From the NCBI GenBank assembly GCA_963811145.1, contig CAWEQC010000001.1, positions 36,102 through 100,101 of the forward strand: 64,000 bases of DNA. The letters run 5' to 3'. A program made the translations under genes and the position numbers. The stretch is from an uncultured Chloroflexia bacterium (lineage in GTDB: Bacteria > Chloroflexota > Limnocylindria > QHBO01). Below are positions 61,960 to 62,712 of the stretch, in pieces. Numbering within the stretch: the first letter of the stretch is position 1; the number at the start of each line of letters is the position of its first letter. The notes beneath the pieces were generated by a model. It was not told where the DNA came from. It did no database searches and worked only from the letters and a program-made list of their open reading frames with translations.

Positions 61960-62712
61960 TCAGGTGGGAACCAGCGTGTTCGCGAAGACCTGCCAGGCGA
62001 GGGCGGACTTCGCCACGAGGCTGAGCAGCACGTACACCGACTCGCCGAACAGGTAGCTGCGCCACGGACCCACGCGCCGGTACTGGAGGACCATGTTCAG
62101 CGCAAACGAGTTGAAGAACAGGAAGAGCGACACGAAGATCGCGTACACGAACGCCGGCGGCTCGGCTGACGATCCAGGGCTCCACAGGTAGATGCCGATC
62201 CCGATCCAGGGAATCGCCCCCGCGATACACCCGAAGGTGAATGGCAGCCACCCGGGCCGTCCGGGCTCCTCATAGTGCTCCTGGAGCAGGCCGAAGAGGA
62301 TCATTGAGGCGTTCACGCCGCCGATGGCAACCAGCGCCGCAACGTCGGCGATGCCGGTGATCATGGCGATCAACACGATCATGAGCGACGAGCTGAACGC
62401 GTACTCGATCCACCGCGCGTAGCTGCGACTCCGCGCAAGCTGAGCCCGGTACCAGCCCCAGATCGGGCCGGCGATCAGCAGGTGCGCCGCCGCCGACATG
62501 AAGAGGAACGCCGCGACGGCCGGCCCGAGCGGCACTGCGAAGAGATCTTTGGTTGTCGCCGCAGAGCCGGGCGGGCCCTCCATGAACGCCGCCGTGACCG
62601 GCAGCGAGAAGTCGTTCGAAAGGAAGAGCAACAGCACGCCCTGCACTGCGTGCAGCACGCCCATTGCGACGTTGTATACGCGGAGGCGGGTGAGACTGCG
62701 CTCGGTTGACAT
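61960..62712 (-). CDS. Heliorhodopsin
   Basis: Track ORF 61960..62907, start moved to ATG 62712 (MSTERSLTRLRVYN). It follows the heliorhodopsin prototype 48C12 block by block: NDFSLP, GPPG, RWIEYAFSSSLMIVLIA, GGVNASMILFG, LPFTFGCIAGAIPWIGI, LFLFFNSFAL, SLVAKSALAWQ. Confidence 0.9.
   Translation of the reverse strand: MSTERSLTRLRVYNVAMGVLHAVQGVLLLFLSNDFSLPVTAAFMEGPPGSAATTKDLFAVPLGPAVAAFLFMSAAAHLLIAGPIWGWYRAQLARSRSYARWIEYAFSSSLMIVLIAMITGIADVAALVAIGGVNASMILFGLLQEHYEEPGRPGWLPFTFGCIAGAIPWIGIGIYLWSPGSSAEPPAFVYAIFVSLFLFFNSFALNMVLQYRRVGPWRSYLFGESVYVLLSLVAKSALAWQVFANTLVPT

Follow-up and report, generated by a model that had tools for sequence, protein, structure and literature searches.

An intact heliorhodopsin gene, very probably of the non-transporting 48C12/TaHeR type, in a Limnocylindria-like (Chloroflexota) genome

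The 64,000-nucleotide (nt) stretch of contig CAWEQC010000001.1 analysed in this study, hereafter the window, comes from an uncultured Chloroflexia bacterium and carries on its minus strand a gene for a heliorhodopsin (HeR), a member of a family of light-sensing membrane proteins that bind retinal. The elements of this gene, numbered along the window, are as follows, with the corresponding residues of the characterised HeR 48C12 in parentheses.

61960..62712, minus strand: HeR coding sequence (CDS), 250 codons plus a TGA stop, without frameshift or internal stop
62717..62720, minus strand: putative Shine-Dalgarno-like motif GAGG, 4 nt 5' of the HeR ATG
62404..62406, minus strand: codon GAG of Glu103, the counterion, within RWIEY (48C12 E107)
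62008..62010, minus strand: codon AAG of Lys235, the retinal Schiff-base residue (48C12 K241), invariant in 120 of 120 close homologues

We consider it very likely that the gene is intact and maintained by selection, that it encodes a canonical prokaryotic HeR of the 48C12/TaHeR functional type in a Limnocylindria-like (Chloroflexota) genome, and that its product serves as a slow, non-transporting sensor or regulator.

The HeR open reading frame (ORF) begins with ATG at 62712-62710 and ends with TGA, which reads TCA on the forward strand, at 61960-61962. We preferred this start to a GTG start that extends the ORF to 62907, because the nearest homologues are 250 residues long, because the 65 extra residues of the GTG-started version are rich in Arg, Pro and Ser and run into the end of the ORF upstream, and because the GAGG motif is present. 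All the motifs quoted in an earlier note on this DNA, namely NDFSLP, GPPG, RWIEYAFSSSLMIVLIA, GGVNASMILFG, LPFTFGCIAGAIPWIGI, LFLFFNSFAL and SLVAKSALAWQ, were recovered in the translation. The third-position GC content of the ORF (0.83-0.85) is as in real genes of this 69%-GC window. The ratio of nonsynonymous to synonymous substitution rates (dN/dS; Nei-Gojobori method) was 0.12-0.24 against eight orthologues, with the value of 0.12 obtained against the 91%-identical orthologue at locus L001, indicating that the HeR gene is under purifying selection. A sigma-70 promoter scan around the gene detected no promoter, and an intrinsic-terminator scan of the same region detected two terminator-like sites, both within the HeR CDS and at chance level.

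The identification of this ORF as a heliorhodopsin gene, made in the earlier note, was supported by the profile search suggested there. The protein matched Pfam PF18761 (Heliorhodopsin) over its full length, at profile positions 1-242 of 242 (E=1.1e-100; 336.4 bits against a gathering cut-off of 26.7), and no other Pfam family matched it at E<=1. The score for the NCBIfam equivalog NF038020, 'heliorhodopsin HeR', was 329.7 bits against a cut-off of 100, indicating that the NCBI pipeline would name the protein automatically; HeRs of this type are already auto-named by annotation pipelines in soil and freshwater Chloroflexota. Among solved structures, the best sequence matches detected by phmmer were 48C12 (6su3; E=7e-76) and TaHeR (E=2e-64).

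The AlphaFold2 model, built from 38 sequences with moderate confidence (pLDDT 70.7, pTM 0.61), shows seven long helices and an AB-loop beta-hairpin with strands at 36-44 and 52-61. When this model was compared with the PDB by Foldseek, the top 10 matches were all heliorhodopsins, with TM-scores of 0.68-0.72 and a lowest E value of 2e-17, and the best type-1 rhodopsin match had E=0.027. Lys and Arg residues number 11 in the predicted cytoplasmic segments and 1 outside, with the loop assignments transferred from 48C12. This charge distribution fits the inverted, N-terminus-inside topology and predicts the orientation that the earlier note had expected.

Global alignment to 48C12 gave 53% identity over 246 aligned residues. 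As anticipated in the earlier note, Lys235 was aligned with the Schiff-base residue K241 and Glu103 with the counterion E107. Using the residue roles described by Kovalev et al. 2020 (PMC7049168), the following further positions were assigned.

Ser73, Ser107 and Ser231: stabilisers of the counterion and Schiff base (48C12 S76, S111 and S237)
His21 and His77: His pair (48C12 H23 and H80)
Asn14, Tyr88, Tyr104, Arg100 and Glu224: Schiff-base cavity and outlet (48C12 N16, Y92, Y108, R104 and E230)
Glu145, Gln210, Tyr220 and Trp101: further residues of the Schiff-base cavity and outlet (48C12 E149, Q216, Y226 and W105)

Across the 120 closest homologues in the database, the Schiff-base, counterion, His-pair, Ser and cavity positions show little or no variation; Glu103, Ser231, His21 and His77 are invariant throughout this set, Ser231 occupying the position of Asp212 in type-1 rhodopsins. 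Both residues of the integrity filter of Chazan et al. were found, a Lys in transmembrane helix (TM) 7 (Lys235) and an Arg in TM3 (Arg100, equivalent to R104). The counterion Glu103 also lies in TM3, and the His pair in TM1 and TM2. Of the polar residues that Kovalev et al. (PMC7049168) list as conserved, all are present except for two clade-typical substitutions. Gln213 of 48C12 is replaced by Met207, a frequent variant at this position according to the same authors (PMC7049168) and the residue found in 108 of the 120 close homologues. Asn101, which in 48C12 is the lone side chain between the Schiff-base cavity and the cytoplasm (PMC7049168), is replaced by Ser97 (62422-62424, minus strand), and the 120 closest homologues are divided at this position between Asn (75) and Ser (45).

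Two other groups of positions bear on function. In the viral HeRs that transport protons, a Glu is required at the position of E191 and a Trp at that of W195 of V2HeR3 (PMC9448325); these positions, in TM6, hold Leu196 and Phe200 in the window HeR, which consequently lacks the transporter hallmark. The lateral fenestration motif, defined as opposing aromatic residues at 162 and 206, small residues at 166 and 210, Gly169 and Asn207 in a preprint (bioRxiv 10.1101/2025.11.27.691015), is complete, with Phe158, Cys162, Gly165, Phe200, Asn201 and Ala204 corresponding to F162, C166, G169, F206, N207 and A210 of 48C12.

Of the characterised HeRs, 48C12 (from an actinobacterial fosmid of Lake Kinneret; PDB 6SU3, 6SU4 and 6UH3) is the best structural match to the model (TM-score 0.72) and belongs to the same length class. 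The likeness extends to the Schiff-base Lys, the Glu counterion, the His pair, the Ser triad, the network of Arg100, Glu145 and Glu224, the fenestration residues and, in the model, the AB beta-hairpin. The two proteins differ in the Met207 and Ser97 substitutions and in the lack of conservation of Arg91, Lys222 and Arg231 of 48C12, and their hosts differ in phylum, Chloroflexota here and Actinomycetota for 48C12. TaHeR (from a Thermoplasmatales archaeon; PDB 6IS6) is archaeal and more distant, with 46% identity and a TM-score of 0.70, and carries Tyr at the first fenestration aromatic, as given in the fenestration preprint, in place of the Phe of the window HeR.

The exact protein sequence is not on record in public assemblies, as judged by exact-sequence look-up. 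The nearest proteins, all from metagenomes, are 86-91% identical, with nothing on record above 91%, and the named near relatives are entries for 'heliorhodopsin HeR' of Candidatus Limnocylindria and of Chloroflexota metagenome-assembled genomes (MAGs), for instance P0037 and P0056. HeRs of Limnocylindria and other Chloroflexota MAGs, such as that of L001 (CAWIVT010000003.1), share the 250-residue architecture at 77-91% identity. Among 8000 candidates scored, at least 7995 proteins had E<=1e-10. The window HeR falls within a densely sampled and already annotated clade, while its sequence is new.

A scan for related loci in which each species was represented by one genome yielded 80. Of these, the best 37 or so came from Limnocylindria or 'uncultured Chloroflexia' MAGs, many belonging to one series with isolate names beginning 'MFD', and these were followed by Actinomycetota at 53-70% identity. 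Six contigs in this set (L002, L007, L019, L020, L050 and L063) are labelled Steroidobacteraceae, Angelobacter or Bifidobacterium and carry a HeR of the Limnocylindria or Actinomycetota type; L002, L007 and L020 also share the Limnocylindria synteny, with AAA_28 and a MarP-protease sequence next to it. These labels probably reflect mis-binning and not the presence of HeRs in diderms, and the suspected contigs bear on claims of HeRs in diderm bacteria. In a single Limnocylindria MAG (MFD09212.bin.2.38), two HeRs that are 78-80% identical to the query were detected (L011 and L073), each in a neighbourhood of the CFA-synthase/FtsX type; the two loci could be paralogous, or could stem from a duplication of strains in the bin.

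Four genes lie next to the HeR gene, two on each side.

60155..61332, plus strand: MarP-family (CvpA plus trypsin-like) serine protease gene, identified by Pfam and by tblastn with the L001 orthologue
61342..61948, plus strand: AAA_28 (NadR-kinase-like) P-loop gene, convergent on the 3' side of HeR (Pfam PF13521, E=1e-7)
62837..63561, minus strand: lipoprotein-like gene, 5' of HeR and co-directional, delineated by three-frame translation and the third-position GC profile
63712..64000 and continuing beyond the window, minus strand: C-terminal end of an FGLLP-motif membrane protein, co-directional with HeR

The AAA_28 protein has an atypical Walker A motif, GSHSVRKS, which is conserved in L001; no relative with a solved structure was found for it, and its NadR-like NCBIfam match was sub-threshold. 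The raw AAA_28 ORF runs to 62169 and overlaps the 3' end of HeR by 210 nt in antisense. DNA alignment with four relatives (L001, L010, L012 and L013) revealed a 1-nt insertion near 61899, and in the restored frame the gene stops at a conserved TAG (61946-61948) lying 11 nt from the stop codon of HeR. The 275-residue AAA_28 ORF was consequently rejected as a real antisense overlapping gene, since the insertion relative to the four relatives removes the conserved stop. The tblastn matches of its tail in 60 loci, 60 residues long, represent the antisense translation of conserved HeR sequence.

The MarP gene of the window is broken by frameshifts between 60952 and 60994; its L001 orthologue is intact, with 391 residues, and matches NF033740. 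Beyond MarP lie genes for a C-N hydrolase, a cupin and an F420-dependent LLM oxidoreductase. On the other side of HeR, the lipoprotein-like gene ends 125 nt before the HeR start and encodes a signal peptide with an LIAGC lipobox followed by a Ser/Thr/Pro/Ala linker, at least two frame changes being needed to read it. Its 159-residue ORF had no Pfam match, and none of the 80 related loci contained a homologue. The gene is either a pseudogene or mis-assembled, and it looks like a genome-specific insertion between the FGLLP membrane protein and HeR. The FGLLP fragment is 83-87% identical to the C-terminus of an 803-residue protein in L010, L025, L032, L015 and L017, and this 803-residue protein matches NCBIfam NF041501.

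Frameshifts were found in three of the four genes nearest HeR, and the acetyl-CoA synthetase gene (14809-16784, minus strand) is split into two overlapping ORFs. Because frameshifts are scattered through the window and also occur far from HeR, the simplest reading is an indel-prone assembly; the pattern suggests such an assembly, possibly from long reads, rather than local gene decay. Raw ORF calls around HeR are distorted by these frameshifts, as in the 210-nt antisense overlap, and call for caution.

To find conserved partners, all ORFs within 5 kb of HeR were clustered across the 80 loci. Limnocylindria HeRs were found in at least three unrelated types of neighbourhood. In type A, that of the window and of about 20 loci, HeR is adjoined downstream by the convergent AAA_28 gene, followed by MarP, the C-N hydrolase and the F420-dependent LLM oxidoreductase; the upstream side carries either the FGLLP protein or a set consisting of a PLP decarboxylase, an SDR and an RCK potassium channel, the last being divergent. 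The window agrees with these Limnocylindria loci in the downstream order and departs from them in having, between HeR and the FGLLP membrane protein, an additional lipoprotein-like gene that is frameshifted. The upstream side of L001 also differs, having the divergent RCK potassium channel. In type B, HeR is preceded by CFA synthase and other genes and followed by an FtsX-like permease, and in type C it is preceded by a PaaD-like protein and followed by threonyl-tRNA synthetase and a glyoxalase. No gene was common to types A, B and C, and for this reason the recurrent neighbours are best explained by common descent within sub-lineages. The earlier note had regarded the native gene context of HeR as informative, an expectation not borne out here, as neither the neighbours nor the synteny gave a clear functional lead.

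The remainder of the window was scanned against Pfam using about 60 called ORFs, about 10 of which had no Pfam match. In agreement with the earlier note, no carotenoid or retinal genes were detected among these ORFs, CrtE/B/I/Y, Blh/Brp and RPE65-type oxygenase all being absent, and no second rhodopsin was found. We also searched the window for the published HeR-partner families, comprising the ten groups of Kim et al. 2024, the two-component and redox families of Bulzu et al. 2021 and the DegV/DUF2177 families of Chazan et al., and none was detected; likewise, no co-directional gene of a listed partner family adjoins HeR at this locus. According to Chazan et al. (bioRxiv 10.1101/2021.02.16.431466), blh is rare beside HeR genes, and genomes with HeR mostly have blh only alongside another rhodopsin. 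Since blh is reported to be rare next to HeRs, its absence near the window HeR follows the usual pattern.

Beyond what this analysis shows, namely the family to which the protein belongs, its residue set and fold, its predicted topology and the purifying selection on its gene, a chromophore, a photocycle, an absence of transport and a regulatory role may be proposed by analogy with the solved and characterised homologues. The product would span the membrane seven times, its N-terminus facing the cytoplasm, and all-trans-retinal would be bound to Lys235 through a protonated Schiff base. Glu103 would be the only counterion, kept in place by Ser73, Ser107 and Ser231. Light would isomerise the retinal, and the Schiff-base proton would pass transiently into a water-filled cytoplasmic cavity lined by His21, His77, Asn14, Tyr88, Tyr104, Arg100 and Glu224. 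A long-lived late intermediate would then alter the cytoplasmic surface of HeR, which might thereby act as a slow light sensor or regulator modulating a partner protein. Retinal would be supplied by genes outside the window or by the environment.

The protein most likely moves no ions, because it has a hydrophobic extracellular half and lacks the Glu/Trp gate found in transporting HeRs; the extracellular halves of 48C12 and TaHeR, neither of which showed transport, are likewise hydrophobic (cited in PMC9448325). A sensory or regulatory role is the best supported, because Leu196 and Phe200 replace the transport hallmark and because the protein resembles the non-transporting 48C12 and TaHeR. Regulatory precedents exist in HeRs that act on other proteins (PMC9529153, PMC9769723, PMC11109279), namely AbHeR on glutamine synthetase, TfHeR on photolyase and OcHeR on the ABC exporter OmrDE. 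These belong to the same family and provide a working model for the effect of a non-transporting HeR. They are encoded in operons with their partners, whereas none of those partner genes is adjacent to the window HeR or present in the window.

Several points weigh against the proposal of a sensor or regulator. The binding of a chromophore, the colour, the photocycle and the absence of transport would be extrapolated from proteins that are 46-53% identical. The cavity-gating Asn101 of 48C12 is replaced by Ser97, the confidence of the predicted structure is only moderate (pLDDT 70.7), and neither retinal pathway genes nor a histidine kinase was found among the ORFs of the 64-kb window.

Different readings of the gene were weighed against this evidence. 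It is possible, although we think it doubtful, that the protein is chiefly a two-antenna light harvester, in which an exogenous xanthophyll, seated in the lateral fenestration that opens between helices E and F, provides the second antenna and the main role is light capture and not signalling, a reading compatible with the sensory one. The complete fenestration motif (bioRxiv 10.1101/2025.11.27.691015) and the absence of carotenoid genes from the window, which fits an exogenous pigment, are in line with it. However, in the accessible part of that preprint the case for HeRs is made from structures, sequence motifs and docking and not from measured carotenoid binding or energy transfer, and the motif is given there for 91% of HeRs, so that its presence says nothing specific to this gene; moreover, harvested energy would have no known outlet if no ions are transported. 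We regard as improbable a silent or decaying gene, whose opsin is unused for want of a chromophore or whose locus is degrading. The lack of any blh, crt or carotenoid-oxygenase gene in the 64 kb and the frameshifts on both sides of HeR, in three of its four nearest genes, could be taken in that sense. Nevertheless, the HeR ORF itself is free of frameshifts, all its invariant residues are intact and its dN/dS against the 91%-identical L001 orthologue is as low as 0.12; the distant frameshift in acetyl-CoA synthetase (14.8-16.8 kb) fits assembly indels and not local decay, and genomes with HeR often lack blh, which is rare beside HeR genes (bioRxiv 10.1101/2021.02.16.431466).

A functional tie of HeR to its neighbours in one Limnocylindria lineage, decidedly improbable in our judgement, would involve the co-directional FGLLP protein or AAA_28/MarP, MarP-family membrane proteases being associated with acid and oxidative stress, either coupling light to envelope-stress proteolysis or acting by antisense regulation between convergent transcripts. 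AAA_28 adjoins HeR convergently in about 20 Limnocylindria loci, and in this recurrent arrangement the stop codons of the two genes are separated by about 1-14 nt. Such a tie, if true, would add a new class of HeR partner and agree with the connection proposed between HeRs and photo-oxidative stress. A light-driven or light-gated proton transporter like that of coccolithovirus, V2HeR3, is very improbable. The window HeR belongs to the same protein family and possesses the Glu224/Gln210 pair in the region of the proton-accepting group, but E191 and W195 of V2HeR3 are replaced by Leu196 and Phe200, and the window HeR has much more in common with 48C12 and TaHeR, in which no transport was detected. 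Finally, that this is a type-1 microbial rhodopsin, pump or sensory, mislabelled as HeR is hardly conceivable. The 7-TM retinal-protein superfold is common to both, and Foldseek gave weak matches to xanthorhodopsin and bacteriorhodopsin. Those matches had E>=0.027, however, against 2e-17 for HeRs, and PF01036 gave no match at E<=1. A single Glu counterion (Glu103) and Ser231 occupy the positions of bacteriorhodopsin residues 85 and 212, the latter Asp212 in type-1 proteins, and the charge distribution indicates the opposite topology; a type-1 identity was accordingly rejected.

With the sensor or regulator proposed here, a further intact heliorhodopsin is added from a soil-type genome of the Limnocylindria (Chloroflexota), and its locus confirms the reported patterns that HeR genes as a rule have no retinal pathway beside them and share no universal partner in the genome. 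Both the protein and its context are unsurprising, and they make the question of HeR function no more testable than do existing data. The protein is a well-conserved candidate for expression, from a clade with Met at the Gln213 position and an Asn/Ser polymorphism at the cavity gate; Ser97 offers a small lead for biophysics and implies no change of kind.

Other genes of the window were noted in passing. An F420 biosynthesis cluster at 45955-48286 (minus strand) comprises a CofE-type gamma-glutamyl ligase, CofC and CofD, and the F420-dependent LLM oxidoreductase that lies four genes from HeR, at 57759-58757 (minus strand), is of the TIGR03842 family. An MFS transporter ORF at 3364-4203 (minus strand) covers just the first half of its Pfam model, which likewise suggests an indel-prone assembly. 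Two DUF885 paralogues of about 545-555 residues are located about 16 kb apart, at 24189-25853 and 40233-41864 (both minus strand). The WxL/WxLIP cell-surface system has been described mainly in Firmicutes; in this Chloroflexota-like genome, genes for a WxL-domain protein and a WxL-interacting (WxLIP peptidoglycan-binding) protein are adjacent at 55361-56961 (plus strand).

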